From UHGV virus genome UHGV-0197611: a stretch of DNA of 15,153 nucleotides. One strand, written 5' to 3'. Source of the DNA: a virus. The notes beneath the pieces were generated by a model. It saw only the letters and a list, made by a program, of their open reading frames with translations. It searched no databases and had not been told where the DNA came from. This document shows, one piece after another, positions 7,040 through 13,439 of the stretch; position 1 is the first letter of the stretch; each line of letters starts with the position of its first letter. The position numbers were made by a program, and so were the translations under genes.

Positions 7040-7786
7040 ATGGAGATTCAAGTGACAAAAGAAATTCTTGCTGTTCCTGGGATGCGACCATCCCCATTGT
7101 TCAAAAGGACTTATAAATTAGTTCGGGAGATTGACGAAAGATTAACCAAACTGATTCATAGATGGCGATTTTTCAATGCAGGCCCCCCCATGAAAGTTAC
7201 TGCATATGATGGAACAGAAATATGCTATCAAGGTTTGGCATTTAAAGGTACTCCCGTTCAAATTTTTTGGAATGGTTTTATCGATCCTTACATTGAAAAT
7301 AACTCAGAAATTGTTTTAGAGCAGACCTCCGCGTTAGCAATTGAATGTCAATTCTCAATAGAGGAGTCAATCGAGGAGGCTAAATTACTATTACTTGTGA
7401 TGATTCGCAGGCTTTACTATGAAATGGCCGAAACAGATAAAATATTAAGAGGTGATGGGTTTTCCTTCCCAGAAAAAAAAGACGTTAGTGGTTATATTGA
7501 AAGTATCTCTCAAAAAATCATAGAACATGCTGAAATTGAAAAGCTAAAAAAAACGCATCCAAAACAAAACATATTCAACATAGCTACTGTAAATAGCCAA
7601 TACGTACAACTTGGTACAAATAACAATATTAATATACAAGAGCTCTCTGAGTTCTTCTCAAAAATTGCATCAACTGGTGAAAAAGAAATTATTACTCTCT
7701 CAAAAAACCTTCTTAAGAAGGCCTACTCAAAAAACTTACTGAGTAAAGAAAACTATGAAGCTCTAATATCAAACCTTAACACATAG
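7040..7786 (+). CDS. Hypothetical protein (248 aa), first gene of AT-rich plus-strand cassette
   Basis: Long ORF in a markedly AT-rich segment on the opposite strand to all flanking modules. Its C-terminal region (FNIATVNSQYVQLGTNNNINI...KNLLKK) is paralogous to the C-terminus of the next gene. No strong SD upstream. Confidence 0.72.
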   Translation: MEIQVTKEILAVPGMRPSPLFKRTYKLVREIDERLTKLIHRWRFFNAGPPMKVTAYDGTEICYQGLAFKGTPVQIFWNGFIDPYIENNSEIVLEQTSALAIECQFSIEESIEEAKLLLLVMIRRLYYEMAETDKILRGDGFSFPEKKDVSGYIESISQKIIEHAEIEKLKKTHPKQNIFNIATVNSQYVQLGTNNNINIQELSEFFSKIASTGEKEIITLSKNLLKKAYSKNLLSKENYEALISNLNT

Positions 7787-7845
7787 ACAAAATACACTTT
7801 CAAATCTACTAGTTAAACGCAAAAGCGATCACGAGGAGCAACATA

Positions 7846-8355
7846 ATGGATCTTAACGTCATGGCATATCCAGAAAAATTCACAATCGCAGGAGTTGAAT
7901 ACAAGGGGAAAAGAAACTCAGCTGAAAAAAAAGTGCTAATCCCTTATACTGAAGAACCAGATATTAATATTGGAGATGAAATCACTCAAAAACTAGGGAA
8001 GGGGGAAATAATATTAAAAGTAATTGATATGTCATTTTTACCAGGAGGTACACTCAATGTTGGTACTAATCACCCTCACATGCTTACATTAAAAGTCGAG
8101 AATCTGACTGCTAATGAACATAAACCAAAACAATCTAGCCAAAATACATTTAACATTGGTAACATATCCGGTACACAGGTTCAACTCGGTGAGCATAACA
8201 ATCTTATTGTAAATCTCAGCATAACTGAACTTGTTGAAAAAGTTTCTCAATCACAAGATCCTCAGGCAAAAAATTTGCTTAAGGATTTACTAAATAATAG
8301 TACGGTAGCCAGTCTCGTTGGTGCTGGTGCGTCCGCCTTGTTAACAATGCTTTGA
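7846..8355 (+). CDS. Hypothetical protein (169 aa), second cassette gene; short hydrophobic small-residue C-terminal tail
   Basis: ATG at 7846 preceded by GAGGAG (7833-7838). Shares the module FNIGNISGTQVQLGEHNNLIV...KNLLKDLL with the upstream protein. Ends in TVASLVGAGASALLTML. Followed immediately by a strong hairpin. Confidence 0.8.
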   Translation: MDLNVMAYPEKFTIAGVEYKGKRNSAEKKVLIPYTEEPDINIGDEITQKLGKGEIILKVIDMSFLPGGTLNVGTNHPHMLTLKVENLTANEHKPKQSSQNTFNIGNISGTQVQLGEHNNLIVNLSITELVEKVSQSQDPQAKNLLKDLLNNSTVASLVGAGASALLTML

Positions 8356-8356
8356 G

Positions 8357-8388
8357 TATATGGCCTGGCAAAGAGCCAGGCCATATAA
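8357..8388. terminator. Bidirectional hairpin between convergent genes
   Basis: Perfect 13-bp stem TATATGGCCTGGC / GCCAGGCCATATA with 6-nt loop, 2 nt after the plus-strand stop (8353-8355) and 1 nt before the minus-strand stop (8390-8392). No long T-tract on either side. Confidence 0.55.
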
Positions 8389-8389
8389 T

Positions 8390-8650
8390 TCATTTCTCAC
8401 TCATCCAATTAGGAGGTAGTGGCATTTTTTTCCTTAAAACCTGCAAATGCTCAATCAAAACATTAACCTGCTCTTGATTTGTTGCAAGGATTTCATCTGA
8501 TAGCGTGCTACGAATAAAATCATGATGGTCAATCCACAGTAAACCACCATTTGCAAGGGCCTGACGGTACTGAGTGGTAGGCATTGAAGCAATATCATGA
8601 AGTCCGAATTGATCAAAATAATTGTTTATTTCATGCGTCAGAATCGGCAT
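8390..8650 (-). CDS. Hypothetical protein (86 aa)
   Basis: ATG at 8650-8648 with AGGAAG RBS. AT-rich. Located between the iteron origin and the cassette, convergent with the cassette. A tandem TTTATCTAA x2 (8664-8681) lies in its 5' leader. Confidence 0.6.
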   Translation of the reverse strand: MPILTHEINNYFDQFGLHDIASMPTTQYRQALANGGLLWIDHHDFIRSTLSDEILATNQEQVNVLIEHLQVLRKKMPLPPNWMSEK

Positions 8651-8792: not shown

Positions 8793-9020
8793 CTTCACCT
8801 GTTCACCTTTTGATATTTTATCTTTTAATTCATAAGGTTAAGGGGTGAACAGTTTCACAAAAACTATTCACCAACTGTTCACCACTGTTCACCCTTGAAG
8901 CTCAATAAACAATCAAAAAGGTGAACAGTGAATAGTTTGGTGAACAGTTCATAAATAACTGTTCACCCTATAATATACTGATATAAAAGATATTTATGAC
9001 AGGGTGAACAGTGGTGAACA
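8793..9020. repeat. Iteron array / putative origin of replication (P4 type I-like octamer TGTTCACC)
   Basis: Nine perfect copies of TGTTCACC/GGTGAACA in both orientations (plus strand 8800, 8876, 8886, 8960; complement 8844, 8920, 8939, 9003, 9013), plus degenerate copies (8793, 8865, 8928), interspersed with AT-rich spacers and lying immediately 3' of the replication gene. Confidence 0.8.
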
Positions 9021-9034
9021 GTTATTCCATAAGT

Positions 9035-10852
9035 TTAATTTTTGCTATCGTCATTAGTGACCGATACACATGATGGCATCCAGTCTTCTGATTCCTCCGT
9101 CAGTGTCACGTTTGAACGCAAACCGTGCTTCGTTTTCCGTTTCATATACTCCCTGCCATATTCCGCCATTGCCCCCGGCATATCTTTACCGAAGCGCGTC
9201 AGTGTTACAGGTTTACCAAACCCATGTGCCCTCATATAAGCCAGATAGGCATGATAGAGATATCTGCGCGGGCTGAATGGCACAATTTCAGCATTACCCA
9301 CTAACAGGCCATCACACATTACCGACGCCATGAGATAGCCGCAGAAGTCCACCAGCGAATCCCCCTCTCGCTTTATCGCCAGTGCTTCTTCAGATTTCTG
9401 CTGCTCATATAACAGGCGTCTGGCTTCGTCCTGGTTAGCAAACCGTGTAAGCAGATGGCGAATCACTACCGCCAGCTCACCTTCTATTTTTTCCGCCAGC
9501 ATCGGATCACGTTCGTTCTCCGGTACAACTTCCGAAAAATTGAATATCACCCGACGACGTGAGATCCCCCCGCTGCGGTCACTGAATGACATGGCGTTAT
9601 TGTTAACCGCCAGCACTACTGCCGGAATACGCGTTGAGTAGGGAGCTTTGTGTTTCGGGTCAATTGCCACCTTGTCACCGCCTGTAATGGCCTTAATCCC
9701 TGCCCCATCACCAGCGTAGCGGGTCATATCCGGCATGATAATCAGAGAAAAGCCAACCACTAACGCACGTTCCCTTGCATCTTCCAGCGCCTTCATGCTT
9801 GCTGATACTGTATTAGCCTTACCCGCCAGCATGGTGCAAATCTCCGCCATTACGCTTTTACCGCTTCCACCAGGACCAGTTACCTCAATGAATAACTGCC
9901 AGTCATATCTGTTCGCCAGCACCATGAATAATGCCGCCAGTACACGATCCGCTTTGCGATCATTCTCAGCCACCGAACGGTGCAACCACTTCCAGAAATT
10001 CGGCGCATGTGTTGCCAGCGTTTCCCCCTCTGCTGGTGGGCTGAAAGGTAATTCACTGGCAATTAACAACCAGTCGTTTTTGTTATGCTCCCGAAAATTA
10101 CCTGTTCTGGTATCAAATACCCCGTTACTGAATCCAATCAAGTTACGGGCTGTATTCCCCATTACAGGCAAACTTAACTTCATGGTATCGACCGCTGATT
10201 TAATAGCGTTCTGTGAATAGCTGATCTCCGCATCAATGAAAATCTGCGCCATAGCACGCTGTAACTCTTTATCCTGAACCGGCTCCCATACAACGCCGTT
10301 GTAATGGTGAACAGTGTCAGAGTCAGCATGAATCGCCAGTTCACCACCATAATGTGCCAGGAGAACTTCGCCGCGTTGACTTGCTCCCATCTGGTTAAGC
10401 GCCAGTGATGAAGCGTTATCGTCTTTTACCCGCTCTTTTTTCTTTACAGGCAGTTCAACAACCTTTTTCTTTTCCGCCAGCTCTCCCCGCTCACGCTCCA
10501 GATATTCGCGCCAGTTCTCCCGTTTCTGGCTGTGCATTCCTTCAGGGTAATAATCAGCATCCCTGACACCTGCCGCTGCCAGTTTCTGCCCGATGGTATT
10601 AACAAGTCCCGGACGCAATAACCCCGCCTGATAGAGACGCACACGATAGCGTCCGTCTGGTACGATTTGCAGGTTGTCCAGTTCGGCAAGTTGTTGCTCT
10701 CCAAGCCAGACAGGTGGCACGTTATCGCCAGCCAGTCGCCCGTCCTGTTCCTGCCACTGCTTCGCATGTGCCCACGCATCACTACCCGCAAAAATGATGA
10801 CTTCCGTCATTTTGTCACGCGGTTGGTGTTTTAAATTTGGCGCTTTTTTCAT
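9035..10852 (-). CDS. Replication protein, P4-family primase C-terminal (D5_N-like) + SF3 helicase (alpha-like)
   Basis: 605 aa from ATG 10852-10850, which overlaps the upstream gene's stop (ATGA). The track start is an upstream GTG. Walker A GPGGSGKS and Walker B-like SLIIMPD. Iterons lie directly downstream. Confidence 0.88.
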   Translation of the reverse strand: MKKAPNLKHQPRDKMTEVIIFAGSDAWAHAKQWQEQDGRLAGDNVPPVWLGEQQLAELDNLQIVPDGRYRVRLYQAGLLRPGLVNTIGQKLAAAGVRDADYYPEGMHSQKRENWREYLERERGELAEKKKVVELPVKKKERVKDDNASSLALNQMGASQRGEVLLAHYGGELAIHADSDTVHHYNGVVWEPVQDKELQRAMAQIFIDAEISYSQNAIKSAVDTMKLSLPVMGNTARNLIGFSNGVFDTRTGNFREHNKNDWLLIASELPFSPPAEGETLATHAPNFWKWLHRSVAENDRKADRVLAALFMVLANRYDWQLFIEVTGPGGSGKSVMAEICTMLAGKANTVSASMKALEDARERALVVGFSLIIMPDMTRYAGDGAGIKAITGGDKVAIDPKHKAPYSTRIPAVVLAVNNNAMSFSDRSGGISRRRVIFNFSEVVPENERDPMLAEKIEGELAVVIRHLLTRFANQDEARRLLYEQQKSEEALAIKREGDSLVDFCGYLMASVMCDGLLVGNAEIVPFSPRRYLYHAYLAYMRAHGFGKPVTLTRFGKDMPGAMAEYGREYMKRKTKHGLRSNVTLTEESEDWMPSCVSVTNDDSKN

Positions 10853-11154: not shown

Positions 11155-11475
11155 TTATCCCCGATTTGAATCAGTATTCGCTTTCTTTATGGCATTTAAT
11201 GCATCTGTGGCATTTTCAATGGTGCACCGTAACGAAATATCAAAATGTCCAAGCATTGCCAGTAACAAACCGATATTACCCATATCAATGCGCATGGCCT
11301 TTGCGTCATATTCCTCATTTTCTGACGCATGCCACATCAGGCTACCAATTGACGCAACAGCCATTGATATATTGTCAGTAGCCCCATCCGCAGCGGAATA
11401 AACCTTTTTAGCAATATCATGCTCACAGTTAAAATGCGGATTAATCAGGTACTGGTAATTTGACATATCAGGCAT
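11155..11475 (-). CDS. Hypothetical protein (106 aa)
   Basis: ATG at 11475-11473 preceded by strong SD AAGGAGGT with 5-nt spacing. Overlaps the stop of the upstream small ORF. Confidence 0.65.
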   Translation of the reverse strand: MPDMSNYQYLINPHFNCEHDIAKKVYSAADGATDNISMAVASIGSLMWHASENEEYDAKAMRIDMGNIGLLLAMLGHFDISLRCTIENATDALNAIKKANTDSNRG

Positions 11476-11671
11476 GGCGCACCTCCTTGCGGATACGGGC
11501 GGTGAACACCATCACGCAGCCAGCTGGGGATTGCTGGCGGGCTTCCTGTTCACTGGTGGCCACGATGGTAATCACACGCGGTTTTGCGGCGCTCAGGGCG
11601 ATAAAACGCCAGGTGAATTTATTCAGGTTGTGCGAATCCCGCCCTCGCGGGTGTGTGGTATGATTTAACAT
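11468..11671 (-). CDS. Small protein (67 aa), possibly Icd-like (host cell-division inhibitor family of P4-like elements)
   Basis: ATG at 11671-11669 with GAGGT RBS. Product MLNHTTHPRGRDSHNLNKFTWRFIALSAAKPRVITIVATSEQEARQQ... resembles my recollection of Icd-like proteins; not verified. It is the C-terminal part of an otherwise implausible 304-aa ORF. Confidence 0.45.
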   Translation of the reverse strand: MLNHTTHPRGRDSHNLNKFTWRFIALSAAKPRVITIVATSEQEARQQSPAGCVMVFTARIRKEVRHA

Positions 11672-11752
11672 AGCTACCTCGATAATCTTGCTATCGTTGG
11701 TGGTTAGACGCCCTACATGTGTTGCGAGCACTGCGGGGCGTTGCTCTTTTAG

Positions 11753-11798
11753 GTGTATTTCACCTTTGCTTTTTAATTTACTCACTGGTGAAATACAC
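11753..11798. promoter_or_regulatory. 12-bp perfect inverted repeat GTGTATTTCACC / GGTGAAATACAC with 22-bp spacer in the divergent regulatory region
   Basis: Read directly. Arms resemble the ori octamer (TTCACC core). Followed on the plus strand by T-runs and a TATACT -10-like hexamer (11829-11834) upstream of the small plus-strand gene. Confidence 0.5.
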
Positions 11799-11864
11799 TT
11801 CAAGCCTTTTTTTATCATTTTTTTTGCGTATACTGACATACACCAATTTTTAGGAGATCCAGAA

Positions 11865-12044
11865 ATGGCAACTGGTGCAAAGAACGCAAAATCACAAATG
11901 ACAACTGTCAGAATCCCACATGAAGTAATGGATGATATTGAGCAACTTAAAGAACCTGGCGAAAGTACCGCTGGTTTTTTAGTTACTGCCGCAAAAGGCG
12001 AGATCAAACGCCGCCAGCGGCGCAAGGCCAAAGAGCAGGAGTAA
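11865..12044 (+). CDS. Small charged protein (59 aa), candidate DNA-binding regulator
   Basis: ATG at 11865 preceded by AGGAG (11853-11857). Product MATGAKNAKSQMTTVRIPHEVMDDIEQLKEPGE...KRRQRRKAKEQE. Transcribed divergently from the replication operon. Confidence 0.5.
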   Translation: MATGAKNAKSQMTTVRIPHEVMDDIEQLKEPGESTAGFLVTAAKGEIKRRQRRKAKEQE

Positions 12045-12101
12045 CCATCACCAGCGCCGTGATGCGGTGAACTGTGGCGCACAGGGTTACAGGTATCTAC
12101 G

Positions 12102-12281
12102 ATGACTGACAAATTATTAAAGAAATTATCCTCATCTAGGAAAAAACAACGCAAAAATGCGGTAAACGAACATGAACCGGAGAGATTCGCACCATGTGCG
12201 TTTGTCCTTGAGAAGTACCTTAAAGAGTATTCCAGGAAAATATGCTCATTGCAGGCATGGCAACAAATCGATCCAGACTGA
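12102..12281 (+). CDS. Small hypothetical protein (59 aa)
   Basis: ORF not in the supplied track (below the size cut-off), found by reading the sequence: MTDKLLKKLSSSRKKQRKNAVNEHEPERF... Weak RBS. Lies between the upstream small gene and a plus-strand terminator. Confidence 0.3.
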   Translation: MTDKLLKKLSSSRKKQRKNAVNEHEPERFAPCAFVLEKYLKEYSRKICSLQAWQQIDPD

Positions 12282-12345
12282 TAGCATTGCCCACCAGCCG
12301 ACAACCTGGTATTCTGGATATGCTCAAGTTTAGTGTTATGCCACT

Positions 12346-12373
12346 GGCGACCGCCCCCGGTCGCCTTTGTTTT
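12346..12373 (+). terminator. Rho-independent terminator of the plus-strand small-gene unit
   Basis: Stem GGCGACCG-(CCCC)-CGGTCGCC followed by TTTGTTTT, located just before the convergent alpA stop. Confidence 0.65.
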
Positions 12374-12390
12374 ATATACCATAACTCACC

Positions 12391-12612
12391 TTACGCCGAT
12401 TTCAGTTGTGCTTTGGGTTGACGATCAAGCCAATCATTAACCTCAGACAGCAACCAACCGACAGAACGAGCCCCCAACTGACGACGGGCTGGAAACACCC
12501 CTTTCCTTTCCATCATATAACGCGTCGTTCGGCAAATACCGGTAAGGCGTCGGCATTCCTCCTCACGAATGATGCGATCAAATTGGTCTTGCGATGATTT
12601 AACTTTGCTCAT
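12391..12612 (-). CDS. alpA: AlpA-family transcriptional regulator (phage/prophage regulatory protein)
   Basis: 73 aa from ATG 12612-12610 (GAGGG upstream), containing ...CRRLTGICRTTRYMMERKGVFPARRQLGARSVGWLLSEVNDWL, which matches the AlpA HTH and SVGW signature. The track ORF extends further upstream. Confidence 0.85.
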   Translation of the reverse strand: MSKVKSSQDQFDRIIREEECRRLTGICRTTRYMMERKGVFPARRQLGARSVGWLLSEVNDWLDRQPKAQLKSA

Positions 12613-12674
12613 ATGGATATGCCCTCGTTTATTATCGTTCGAGAGCATATTGATAATATGCTTAGAATATTTAG

Positions 12675-12705
12675 GTGATATCACATATTTTATATGTGAT
12701 ATCAC
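12675..12705. promoter_or_regulatory. Paired palindromic operator-like sites GTGATATCAC x2 (12675-12684 and 12696-12705), centres 21 bp apart, upstream of alpA
   Basis: Read directly. The second copy overlaps the stop codon of the 245-aa gene. A further palindrome AGCATAT-TGATA-ATATGCT lies at 12644-12662. Confidence 0.5.
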
Positions 12706-13439
12706 GTTCGCCCTAAGTATTTAGCCCACGTATTCTTATCTGTTGCGGGAAGAAACACCCCTTTCATCGCTGCCGCAGCCTCTAAAACAGCGATCACTTT
12801 AGCAACTGGAGCAGTTCCAATATCTATATCATCCATTTCTGGAATTAGTTTGATTAATGCAGGGATCAACTCAGCTTTCTTCGCAAGAGTTTTTGGCGAT
12901 TCTCCCATTTTTCTTCCAGGCATGGTTCCAACATCTTTGATATGCTCCAAATCCTTAGCCATTACACATAAAAACCTTCTGTCGATCTCAATAGCCCCAT
13001 CACTCATAATTTGACATTCCCAGTTTTCTGATTCAGGACGAGTTGAAAAAAAAGATGATACTATCCTTGCATCATTGCCAATAAATTCAAGTTCAGAAAA
13101 ACTTTCCCGATTTAGATAGAAGAAACCGCAAAAATTCTTTGCAAGATAAGAAGCCACACCAAAATAATTTACCCATTCAAAATCGCTACCAACAGGCTTC
13201 ATCCCTGTAATTACCCAGCGATCCCCTTGCAACATCCCTCCAGAATCAACATCAATATTTTCAACTAATGATTTTGGTATAACTAGCGATTTACATGGAT
13301 GACAGTTTGGAAAATAAACAGAAATATTCAAAGCACCTATAGCAGCAAAATGATATATATCATTAAGCGTACATCCCAGCTTCTTTGCTGCTTCAGGCAA
13401 TGGATAATATATACGCTCAGGGATGCTTATCTTTTTCAT
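12702..13439 (-). CDS. Hypothetical protein (245 aa) with N-terminal HTH-like segment; between integrase and alpA
   Basis: ATG at 13439-13437 overlaps the integrase stop (ATGA). N-terminus PEAAKKLGCTLNDIYHFAAIGAL looks like a helix-turn-helix. More AT-rich than int and alpA by eye. Confidence 0.75.
   Translation of the reverse strand: MKKISIPERIYYPLPEAAKKLGCTLNDIYHFAAIGALNISVYFPNCHPCKSLVIPKSLVENIDVDSGGMLQGDRWVITGMKPVGSDFEWVNYFGVASYLAKNFCGFFYLNRESFSELEFIGNDARIVSSFFSTRPESENWECQIMSDGAIEIDRRFLCVMAKDLEHIKDVGTMPGRKMGESPKTLAKKAELIPALIKLIPEMDDIDIGTAPVAKVIAVLEAAAAMKGVFLPATDKNTWAKYLGRT

Follow-up and report, generated by a model that had tools for sequence, protein, structure and literature searches.

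A candidate repressor-operator set, a predicted antisense RNA and an eta-like reading frame in the control region of a capsid-forming PICI-type satellite of Escherichia coli

As outlined in PMC10111431, which summarises Forti et al. 1999, the left operon of P4 comprises P_LL, vis, the nested eta and kil genes, an internal P_LE and the CI immunity RNA. The AlpA/Vis-family gene of P4 is followed by a translationally coupled long open reading frame (ORF) whose C-terminal ~65 aa belong to the Icd/Kil family (in the P4 record, the Eta start overlaps the vis stop); an internal promoter precedes the short form and a primase operon lies downstream. In the immI region of P1 (c4 RNA - icd - ant), an RNA of ~77-80 nt acts on the ribosome-binding region of an operon-heading Icd-family gene; c4 is processed from the same transcript and pairs through short complementary loops. 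The immI region of P22 (mnt / P_mnt-P_ant / arc-ant, sar RNA) contains a small Arc/Mnt-like repressor gene that is divergent from the repressed operon, with operators that overlap back-to-back promoters and provide autoregulation, and a short antisense RNA over the ribosome-binding site of the downstream gene. In the SaPIs, which are Gram-positive PICIs, the satellite master repressor gene (Stl/Str) is divergent from the replication/packaging operon, and in type I toxin-antitoxin systems such as hok/sok a structured, constitutive cis-antisense RNA covers the translation start of a gene for a small toxic protein. In descriptions of Gram-negative PICIs, capsid-forming ones among them, AlpA activates the island after an unknown helper signal, and the paper on capsid-forming PICIs mentions no repressor (bioRxiv 10.1101/2022.09.08.507074). 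In the one paper that we found to list YlcI/YnfO in such elements, the label is just "prophage-associated protein".

The stretch of DNA analysed here (UHGV virus genome UHGV-0197611, 15,153 nucleotides; hereafter the window) is a capsid-forming PICI-type satellite of E. coli. It matches E. coli MS6198 at 100%, between fis and yhdJ, and in RefSeq annotation the identical ~15 kb locus of that strain carries int, alpA, primase, capsid, protease, portal, connector, TerS and TerL genes, which is the gene set described for capsid-forming PICIs (bioRxiv 10.1101/2022.09.08.507074). Matches to the control region were found in 993 of 5426 complete E. coli genomes, and BLAST searches of GenBank phages with the module and with the YlcI-like protein gave no match.

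The island is like P4 in the gene order given above, with the predicted leftward promoter P_L as the analogue of P_LE, and the origin octamer TGTTCACC is identical in the two elements. It is unlike P4 in that C4/CI and isrK/seqA RNAs are detected in P4 and none in the island, in that the proposed immunity factor is a protein, whose gene and ORF2 lie antisense inside the eta-like ORF, and in that the regulatory RNA is a predicted cis-antisense transcript of the opposite strand. With P22 immI, our proposal shares a divergent small repressor, operators over both promoters with autoregulation, and an antisense RNA over a ribosome-binding site. Unlike in P22, the YlcI-like protein shows no significant similarity to Arc or Mnt in sequence or structure, there are three separated 11-bp sites rather than one operator of 17-21 bp, the controlled genes would be Icd and primase genes rather than an antirepressor gene, and the repressor gene lies within another ORF, on the opposite strand. 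The predicted RNA of the island has the size and target region of P1 c4, but it is fully complementary, comes from the opposite strand and has no Rfam C4 match. The divergent placement of the candidate repressor gene recalls the SaPIs, whose Stl proteins, unlike the candidate here, are helix-turn-helix proteins inactivated by helper proteins. In contrast to hok/sok, the Icd-like gene (a putative toxin gene) is the first gene of a long operon and doubles as the 3' end of a larger ORF.

Promoters and three putative operators

The control region (11672-11864) is bounded by the leftward Icd-like gene and the rightward ylcI gene (Table 1). The divergent region of ~190 bp and the two 59-aa plus-strand ORFs recognised in a preliminary description are both present, although on the minus strand this region is not intergenic but lies inside the eta-like ORF. 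That description did not include the third repeat copy at 11833-11843, the leftward promoter, the antisense RNA or the long minus-strand ORF.

Table 1. Features of the control region and its flanks, in window coordinates
Feature	Position	Strand	Details
Icd/Kil-like protein gene, 67 aa	11468-11671	-	First gene downstream of P_L; NF033153 phage_ICD_like 1.6e-18; RefSeq Icd-like
eta-like ORF, 304 codons	11468-12382	-	ATG 8 nt after alpA stop; Shine-Dalgarno AAGGTGAG before ATG
Predicted extended -10 promoter of antisense RNA (TGGTATGAT)	11656-11664	+	Inside codons 3-5 of the Icd-like gene
Predicted ~80-nt cis-antisense RNA	11670-11751	+	5' stem-loop 11671-11706, terminator hairpin 11707-11742, U-rich tail
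Putative operator O1 (GTGTATTTCAC), left repeat arm	11753-11763		Just downstream of predicted leftward start
Predicted leftward promoter P_L	11775-11803	-	-35 TTGAAG (11803-11798), 17-bp spacer, -10 TAAATT (11780-11775), start ~11768
Putative operator O2 (GTGAAATACAC), right repeat arm	11788-11798		Fills P_L spacer
Predicted P_R -10 TATACT, promoter of ylcI-ORF2	11829-11834	+	T-rich upstream, without a good -35; expected start ~11840
Putative operator O3 (CTGACATACAC)	11833-11843		Same orientation as O2; overlaps -10 end and start site of P_R
ylcI, 59-aa YlcI/YnfO-family protein	11865-12044	+	Shine-Dalgarno AGGAG 11852-11856
ORF2, 59-aa small protein	12102-12281	+	Conserved; basic N-terminus, one predicted helix
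Intrinsic terminator of rightward unit	12346-12375	+	8-bp stem with 7 GC pairs, 4-nt loop, then TTTGTTTTAT
alpA (AlpA/Vis family)	12391-12612	-	Pfam PF05930 Phage_AlpA 1.4e-14; RefSeq annotation

The pattern of P_L (TTGA(C/A/G)N, 16-18 bp, TAnnnT) was present in 65 of 67 distinct related regions, its -35 being visible as a conserved TCAA on the plus strand. For P_R, GTATACTG was conserved at ~80-90% across 70 distinct related sequences, which bears out the -10-like hexamer noted previously, and no -35 was recognisable. A generic promoter scan detected none of P_L, P_R and the antisense promoter, so that these assignments rest on comparative conservation. The terminator reported to face alpA was also recovered, as GGCGACCGCCCCCGGTCGCC followed by a T-run (12346-12365) on the plus strand. 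Read on the minus strand, the same hairpin has no T-run after it, and a minus-strand terminator scan of 11400-12750 found none, so that none was found between alpA and P_L.

The control region contains a perfect 12-bp inverted repeat, GTGTATTTCACC (11753-11764) and GGTGAAATACAC (11787-11798), whose arms are fully complementary across a 22-nt spacer. When the 193-bp region was randomised under a Markov-1 model and scored for inverted repeats of at least 12 bp with a 3-45 nt spacer, 0.07% of 3000 randomisations contained one (chance ~7e-4). Comparison with 77 related loci revealed that the two arms belong to a set of three 11-bp GTG-N5-CAC sites with fixed positions, which were found in nearly all of these loci. 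The N5 core differs among loci, with ~20 different cores; it is AAATA in the window and TCAGC in the L031 type, in which residues 11-15 of the YlcI-like protein are KKLEA. The O2 core lies at a fixed -76 from the ylcI ATG and abuts the conserved TTGA of the minus-strand -35, the O3 core lies at a fixed -31, and the distance between O2 and O3 is always 45 bp. On average, 1.95 of 9 positions differ between O2 and O3 of the same locus, compared with 4.47 between loci. The orientation of O1 relative to O2 varies by lineage, being inverted in some and direct in others, so the repeat is not one symmetric element, as had been thought, but two of three sites. On these comparative grounds we read the three sites as a protein operator set and not an RNA hairpin, because site 1 is inverted or direct by lineage. 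The three copies overlap the P_L spacer, the P_L start and the P_R -10/+1.

The repeat arms had also been likened to the origin octamer, nine copies of which (TGTTCACC) lie at 8800-9020. The likeness holds for GGTGAA and for nothing beyond it. The proposal of cross-talk with the replication protein is not supported: the octamer is the same in the island and in P4, whereas the operator cores differ by locus.

The YlcI/YnfO-family protein and its match to the operators

The protein encoded by ylcI matched the NCBIfam profile NF041551 over residues 9-50 (9.2e-18; 64 bits against a cut-off of 30), in agreement with its RefSeq name. Its AF2 model (pLDDT 88) has an extended segment (residues 12-18) followed by two helices (19-28 and 35-58), the strand-helix-helix order of a ribbon-helix-helix protein; DSSP assigned no strand in this monomer model. 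In hhalign, residues 11-32 aligned with residues 8-29 of Arc at E 0.0033, with a probability of only 9.6%, in a register that places FNLRWPREV on TTVRIPHEV; the E-value for Mnt was 0.057, and the strand motif R-x-P-x-E-V aligns with both Arc and Mnt. Pfam gave no ribbon-helix-helix match, sequence search of the PDB gave no significant match and Foldseek against it reached a best E of 2.5, and the best Foldseek E in BFVD was 0.087, entries named as Arc/CopG appearing only at E > 3. In two related islands (L079 and L080), the ylcI slot is occupied by an Arc-like protein, and both of these slot-mates match NF041551 at ~1e-3; the one in L079 also matches Pfam Arc (0.038). Within the predicted strand, the variable positions 12 and 14 alternate with hydrophobic positions 13, 15 and 17 and with an invariant R16, and these two variable positions track the operator core. 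Substitutions in ylcI concentrate at codon position 3, indicating purifying selection. We propose that the YlcI/YnfO-family protein is probably a ribbon-helix-helix repressor.

We compared operator cores between pairs of loci according to residues 11, 12, 14 and 16 of the YlcI-like protein. The core was shared in 205 of 257 pairs with the same residues and in 20 of 2593 pairs with different ones. A Spearman test on pairwise distances between strand residues and operators gave 0.44, no stronger than the 0.43 obtained with a control spacer. As the whole module co-diverges, relatedness confounds this correlation, and because the control spacer correlated equally we relied on the concordance of repeats within a locus and on natural swaps. 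Xenorhabdus loci have the same core and identical YlcI strand residues, with an AlpA that is 33-35% and a primase that is ~50% identical to those of the window. Conversely, the two islands whose ylcI slot holds an Arc-like protein have different repeats, although their Icd and the genes after it are near-identical. Operator type tracks the first plus-strand ORF and not AlpA, primase or the first leftward gene. In line with the earlier naming of this ORF as a possible regulator, the YlcI/YnfO-family protein is the best candidate binder of the three sites.

The second gene of the rightward unit is also real. Absence of tblastn matches to ORF2 in 77 non-E. coli loci had pointed to a non-gene, but this was overturned by intact homologues with an ERFAPCAF.LE..LKE motif in divergent islands of E. 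coli, some of which have a different repressor. The homologues form 27 protein clusters, all from Escherichia. The AF2 model of ORF2 is a single helix of low confidence (pLDDT 70).

A predicted antisense RNA and an eta-like reading frame

In the Icd-like gene, the stretch complementary to the predicted antisense RNA includes the Shine-Dalgarno region and reaches the start codon. RNAalifold found compensatory changes in 16 of 23 pairs, and several asymmetries assign the structure to the plus strand: G.U pairs valid on one strand only numbered 179 on the plus and 8 on the minus strand, pairs form in 97.5% versus 84.9% of cases, and the T fraction after the hairpin is 0.51 versus 0.11. The window sequence folds at -32.3 kcal/mol (z -4.2). 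A covariance model built without the window scored it at 64.3 bits (E 1e-13), on the plus strand only, and gave one plus-strand match each in 76 of 78 other loci. The T-A-n-n-n-T pattern of the predicted promoter is conserved in the aligned loci (T 59/59, A 58/59, T 59/59), and its A falls at a synonymous third-codon position of the Icd-like gene, where CAT, TCT, TGT, GAT and AGT codons all end in T. By prediction, the element thus has a covarying structure, its own promoter and a terminator, as expected of a cis-antisense RNA.

Rfam has no family for this RNA. An RNA of the P1 c4 / P4 CI type upstream of icd was also considered, and was dropped because Rfam searches of 11400-12750 gave nothing relevant, either at gathering thresholds or at E <= 10; the same tool detected C4 (74.9 bits) and isrK (60.8 bits) in P4. 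An isrK-type seqA target inside the eta-like ORF was likewise not matched in 11400-12750 at E <= 10, and the covariance model of the antisense RNA found no match in P4.

On the minus strand, the eta-like ORF lies antisense to ORF2 and ylcI, crosses both promoters as well as the operators and the leader, and continues in frame into the Icd-like gene. NF033153, the family to which P4 Kil also belongs (7.8e-21), matches residues 256-298 of its 304. The locus thus has the C-terminal Icd/Kil domain and the in-frame extension from the AlpA/Vis stop that characterise P4-type eta/kil. The eta frame is open through ylcI in 77 of 77 loci (0.43 expected); as its wobble positions coincide with those of ylcI, this is by itself only modestly surprising. 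Across the 190-nt control region it is open in 66 of 77 (0.02 expected). It is the frame of the first leftward gene in 53 of 69 loci, the other frames accounting for 1 and 6. An eta-like ORF starts 8-11 nt after alpA in five loci. Locus L082 has a continuous 430-aa version, whose PGAP label of BRO-N had no support from Pfam. Annotation pipelines cut the long ORF into "Icd-like" and "BRO-N pseudogene" pieces, or omit the small genes.

Proposed switch and alternative explanations

The earlier view of the region as a switch that separates the replication operon from a divergent regulator gene is supported, and related loci carry three lineage-specific operator copies over both promoters. Judging from sequence comparisons, we consider it fairly probable that the region is an immunity switch on the plan of the P4 left operon, with a protein repressor, an antisense RNA and eta-like read-through. 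During quiescence, the YlcI/YnfO-family protein, probably as a ribbon-helix-helix dimer, would be made from P_R and occupy the three GTG-N5-CAC operators. Occupancy of O2 in the spacer and O1 at the start site would shut P_L, otherwise the source of the Icd/Kil-like protein and the primase operon, and O3, over the -10 and start site of P_R, would provide negative autoregulation. The ~80-nt antisense RNA, if constitutive, would pair with the ribosome-binding region of the Icd-like gene, and we propose that leaky P_L transcripts therefore give no toxin.

Helper phages are known to turn on alpA in PICIs, and in our proposal induction would begin in this way. Transcripts from alpA would encounter no minus-strand terminator, and ribosomes coupled to the alpA stop would continue into the 304-codon eta-like ORF, whose translation would take them past the antisense repressor genes and over the operators and the leader. 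Such translated read-through may, as in P4, escape termination and antisense control and deliver the replication genes, while convergent transcription would simultaneously switch off P_R and the repressor. That helper induction leads to read-through is proposed by analogy with P4. A broader generalisation, which we offer tentatively, is that Gram-negative PICI/P4-like satellites may use a previously undescribed three-layer switch, consisting of a YlcI/YnfO-family ribbon-helix-helix repressor with lineage-specific operators, eta-like read-through, and a new ~80-nt cis-antisense RNA family guarding the Icd/Kil toxin. As the repressor gene lies antisense inside the eta-like ORF, transcription and translation from alpA would cross the gene, its promoter and its operators, erasing immunity.

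Among other explanations, the three operators could be real but bound by another protein (AlpA, primase, the product of the eta-like ORF, or a factor from the helper phage or the host), with the YlcI-like protein acting elsewhere, for instance as an antitoxin for the Icd-like protein. We regard this as unlikely. Co-divergence of the whole module means that any linked gene could co-vary with the sites, and one lineage's operator, GGTGAACACCAC, includes the origin octamer GGTGAACA; however, the Xenorhabdus loci retain the core despite their distant AlpA and primase and a different type of first leftward gene, the repeats change where an Arc-like gene is swapped in, and O3 sits on the promoter of ylcI itself, as is typical in autoregulation. 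Antitoxins are common among ribbon-helix-helix proteins and one relative has a weak VapB-type match, but antitoxin genes are normally co-transcribed with their toxin rather than divergent from it.

Silencing could instead depend mainly on RNA, as in P4 and P1, through the antisense RNA and termination overridden by eta translation, leaving the protein to autoregulate or fine-tune. The precedents of RNA control of kil and icd, the strong conservation of the open eta frame, and an antisense motif that is more universal than the repressor type, occurring with both YlcI-like and Arc-like partners, speak for this model. We nevertheless assign it a low probability: O1 and O2 lie exactly over the P_L spacer and start in essentially all loci, which would be purposeless if the protein only regulated itself, and the antisense RNA overlaps the translation start and not the promoter. 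That the inverted repeat forms an RNA hairpin, as an attenuator or terminator in the leader of a divergent transcript, is very improbable. Its arms are perfect over 12 bp and 22 nt apart, and in a scan the left arm alone was flagged as a weak hairpin of terminator type, AGGTGTATTTCACCT, with T-rich sequence after it. This reading is already contradicted by at least seven specificity groups in which the two sites are direct repeats and cannot pair, and the other promoter carries a third copy at a distance of 45 bp. With the predicted P_L start between the arms, transcription would cover only one of them.

If the conserved repressor-operator set proposed here is true, silencing, immunity specificity and induction become directly testable, with ~20 specificity types across Enterobacterales. 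The three-layer switch, if true, would take the place of the CI RNA immunity of P4 and would be the first function for the YlcI/YnfO family, and the locus would carry unusually compact overlapping information. Two predicted promoters, three predicted operators, a predicted RNA gene and an open reading frame share 200 bp, and at the locus as a whole two genes are embedded antisense in a third.

Island layout and the putative operator set

The 1.3 kb around the divergent control region is 100% identical to E. coli MS6198, whose RefSeq annotation carries a ~15-kb island between fis and yhdJ. Judged by the genes annotated there (integrase, alpA, primase, its own capsid, protease, portal, connector, HNH and terminase), the island has the gene set of a capsid-forming PICI as described in bioRxiv 10.1101/2022.09.08.507074. 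Its genes lie on the minus strand, except for the two small ORFs studied here and two hypothetical genes at ~7040-8355. ORF2, the terminator and alpA were found where the preliminary description had placed them. The gene that follows the Icd-like gene (11155-11475) encodes 106 aa, the length of P4 ORF106 (DUF5375; P4 6984-7304), and had no match in Pfam or NCBIfam. Elsewhere in the island, a perfect 13-bp inverted repeat with a 5-nt loop (TATATGGCCTGGC / GCCAGGCCATATA, 8357-8387) sits between the convergent genes 7846-8355 (+) and 8390-8650 (-), and is probably a bidirectional terminator.

Features of the switch region (window positions unless a locus is named)
Feature	Position	Strand	Detail
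Icd-like gene	11468-11671	-	NF033153, 1.6e-18
Extended -10 of antisense RNA (predicted)	11656-11664	+	TGGTATGAT
O1 (putative operator)	11753-11763		left repeat arm
P_L (predicted leftward promoter)	11803..11798 and 11780..11775	-	TTGAAG, 17-bp spacer, TAAATT; comparative conservation
O2 (putative operator)	11788-11798		right repeat arm
P_R -10 (predicted rightward promoter)	11829-11834	+	TATACT; conservation
O3 (putative operator)	11833-11843		third unit copy
YlcI/YnfO-family gene, 59 aa	11865-12044	+	NF041551, 9.2e-18
ORF2	12102-12281	+	
Terminator	12346-12365		
alpA	12391-12612		
Arc/Mnt-looking protein in the ylcI slot	L079 2207-2380; L080 2316-2495		..PPYQMRLPEDFRAQLEEAAK..; E. coli O157 644-PT8; 19KM1776

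The perfect inverted repeat reported in the preliminary description holds: GTGTATTTCACC (11753-11764) and GGTGAAATACAC (11787-11798) are fully complementary and 22 nt apart, and a repeat of such length occurred in 0.07% of randomised 193-bp regions (n = 3000). We compared 77 loci, one genome per species, that encode a relative of the 59-aa protein; Enterobacterales make up most of them, and some Gilliamella and a Pasteurellaceae-like taxon are also represented. The context is kept across these loci, with the primase and first leftward gene on one side and the small gene, followed by alpA and int, on the other. In nearly every locus an 11-bp unit, GTG-N5-CAC (CTG-N5-CA in a few lineages), is present in three copies 5' of the small gene, at fixed offsets; relative to its ATG, the cores sit at around -31, -76 and -98 to -112. 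The N5 core is of about 20 types among loci, yet common to the copies of one locus; over 9 positions, the mean number of differences between O2 and O3 is 1.95 for copies of one locus and 4.47 for copies of different loci.

We considered whether the repeat acts as a hairpin. Five groups, the window's among them, have O1 inverted with respect to O2, but in at least seven groups it is direct (for example, GTGTCAGCCAC or GTGAATCGCAC, each three times). As direct repeats cannot pair, these groups contradict a hairpin, and the conserved feature is a putative set of protein-binding sites, of which the perfect inverted repeat is O1 and O2 in one orientation class. The resemblance of the arms to the origin octamer had also hinted at cross-talk with the replication protein. 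In the origin (8800-9020, downstream of the primase gene), TGTTCACC occurs exactly nine times, counting both orientations, where chance would give 0.54; this octamer is that of the P4 type-1 ori repeat. One lineage's operator, GGTGAACACCAC, does contain it, but the window operators share only GGTGAA with its complement, and operator cores differ between loci while the octamer is identical in the window island and P4, so that cross-talk finds no support. Single exact minus-strand copies of TGTTCACC also occur within the primase gene (10306-10313) and the Icd-like gene (11501-11508).

Predicted promoters and the candidate repressor

O2 adjoins a conserved plus-strand TCAA (TTGA on the minus strand), and TTGA(C/A/G)N followed after 16-18 bp by TAnnnT was present in 65 of 67 distinct regions. 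On the small-gene side, GTATACTG is kept at 80-90%. A generic promoter scan reported neither P_L nor P_R. If these conserved elements are promoters as predicted, O2 would fill the P_L spacer, O1 would cover or follow the P_L start site, and O3 would overlap the end of the P_R -10 and the P_R start site, a placement that would be the classic one for a protein repressing both P_L and its own promoter, P_R.

Several indirect lines of evidence point to the 59-aa YlcI/YnfO-family protein as the candidate operator binder. Purifying selection acts on the protein (18-27 substitutions in third codon positions versus 2-8 at positions 1 and 2), and its confident AF2 model (pLDDT 88) has an extended segment at residues 12-18 followed by two helices. 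PDB, Pfam and Foldseek searches gave no significant match for the fold. At low probability, hhalign placed residues 11-32 on Arc 8-29 (TTVRIPHEV against FNLRWPREV), and Mnt aligned in the same register. In the family alignment R16 is invariant, hydrophobic residues occupy positions 13, 15 and 17, and variation falls on 11, 12 and 14, a pattern that in sequence is that of a ribbon-helix-helix recognition strand. The operator core was common to 205 of 257 locus pairs with equal residues 11, 12, 14 and 16 and to 20 of 2593 pairs with different residues, although this association is confounded by relatedness because a control spacer correlates equally well.

Natural swaps provide the stronger argument. 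Xenorhabdus loci have the strand residues and operator core of the window, together with an AlpA of 33-35% identity, a primase of about 50% and a first leftward gene of another type. Conversely, in the E. coli islands L079 and L080, Icd and the downstream genes are nearly the same as the window's, while the ylcI slot encodes an Arc-like protein (Pfam Arc, E = 0.038 for that of L079; NF041551, ~1e-3 for both) and the repeats are quite unlike the window's (GGTAATTACC twice; TGTAAT three times). Both islands keep the antisense RNA motif described below, the Icd-like gene and ORF2 with the other slot protein, and look like a modular repressor swap.

The YlcI-like protein also carries a C-terminal motif, GEIKRRQR(K/R) (residues 45-53), that is invariant across relatives with differing operator specificities; rich in arginine and located on the long second helix, it may touch a partner that is itself conserved, for instance the DNA backbone, RNA or another subunit. 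Within its coding sequence, on its own strand, lies a terminator-like hairpin with a T-run (11956-11974, CTGGCGAAAGTACCGCTGG TTTTTTAGTT).

ORF2 had no homologue in the 77 loci. Divergent E. coli islands, among them those that encode the Arc-like repressor, do carry intact, conserved copies with the motifs MTDK..K and ERFAPCAF.LE..LKE, and its 27 protein clusters are from Escherichia only. ORF2 is thus probably a genuine gene confined to this lineage; structure prediction gave one helix, at low confidence.

A conserved predicted antisense RNA and the eta-like frame

A GC-rich hairpin and a smaller stem-loop lie between the Icd start and O1 in all loci. RNAalifold of 59 loci predicted three helices, with compensatory double changes at 16 of 23 pairs. 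The plus strand was favored by a G.U strand test (179 cells valid on this strand only versus 8 on the minus strand only), by pairing (97.5% versus 84.9%) and by a U-rich stretch after the large hairpin on this strand only. An invariant T-A-n-n-n-T lies 7-10 nt upstream of the first helix; its A, fixed in 58 of 59 loci, occupies a synonymous third-codon position of the opposite-strand gene, at a codon whose residue varies (His, Ser, Cys, Asp). The window's version of this element is the extended -10 TGGTATGAT. A covariance model built without the window and its closest relative matched the window at 11670-11751 on the plus strand (64.3 bits, E about 1e-13), gave exactly one plus-strand match each in 76 of 78 other loci, and also matched L079 and L080. 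The model had no match in P4, and no Rfam family matches this RNA. The window sequence folds at -32.3 kcal/mol (z -4.2) on the plus strand, versus -22.4 kcal/mol on the minus strand. The complementarity of the predicted RNA to the Shine-Dalgarno region of the first leftward gene would be complete and would extend to the start codon; the anti-SD CCUC is in a hairpin loop in most loci.

The minus strand is also open for 304 codons, starting with an ATG at 12382 and ending with the stop codon of Icd. In 53 of 69 loci, the first leftward gene has a frame that continues open upstream across leader, operators and both promoters and over the entire antisense small gene; the median open length is 182 codons, and the two other frames have medians of 3 and 8. 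No stop interrupts this frame within the small gene in 77 of 77 loci (0.43 expected, synonymous resampling), nor within the AT-rich control region of 190 nt in 66 of 77 (0.02 expected). The start lies 8-11 nt past alpA in five loci. Annotation by PGAP divides such frames: in the related locus L082 (1914-3002), a continuous 430-aa ORF is split into a "BRO-N pseudogene" and an extended Icd-like protein, and in L079 (O157 strain 644-PT8; 2230-2823), the upstream part of a continuous 314-aa ORF is labeled "Icd-like pseudogene". One of the pieces annotated in these two loci is an Icd-like protein of 135 aa. The RefSeq/PGAP annotation of L079 leaves out the small plus-strand genes.

The long ORF ending as the Icd-like gene has the eta/kil arrangement of P4. 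P4 Kil is in the same Icd-like family as the window gene (7.8e-21), and in P4 the start of Eta overlaps the stop of vis, much as the window ORF, preceded by AAGGTGAG, starts 8 nt after the alpA stop. Section 20 of PMC10111431, citing Forti et al. 1999, describes P4 Kil as a short product from an internal constitutive promoter. In contrast to the window, the immunity factor of P4 is the CI RNA; Rfam found C4 (74.9 bits) and isrK (60.8 bits) in P4 and neither in the window region.

Proposed switch

We propose that the repressor, bound to O1 and O2, would shut P_L and, via O3, limit its own synthesis, and that the antisense RNA would keep any leaky transcripts from yielding Icd protein. Transcripts of alpA that are induced by the helper and translated across the eta-like ORF would bypass both repressor and antisense RNA and, converging on P_R, would also shut off the repressor. 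Each mechanism alone is of a known kind (a switch made of repressor and operators, a cis-antisense RNA that covers the start of a toxin gene, and the translated read-through known from P4). In the literature searched, we found no description of this combination, of a YlcI/YnfO role or of this RNA, and the module is absent from GenBank phages; the predicted switch would be of real interest to satellite researchers.

Expression of alpA is the step thought to be under helper phage control. At 12675-12705, the minus-strand sequence GTGATATCACATAT AAA ATATGTGATATCAC forms a perfect 14-bp palindrome around a 3-nt centre. It begins where the 245-aa gene has its stop codon, ~65 nt upstream of the first codon of alpA, and is a candidate operator or attenuator for alpA.
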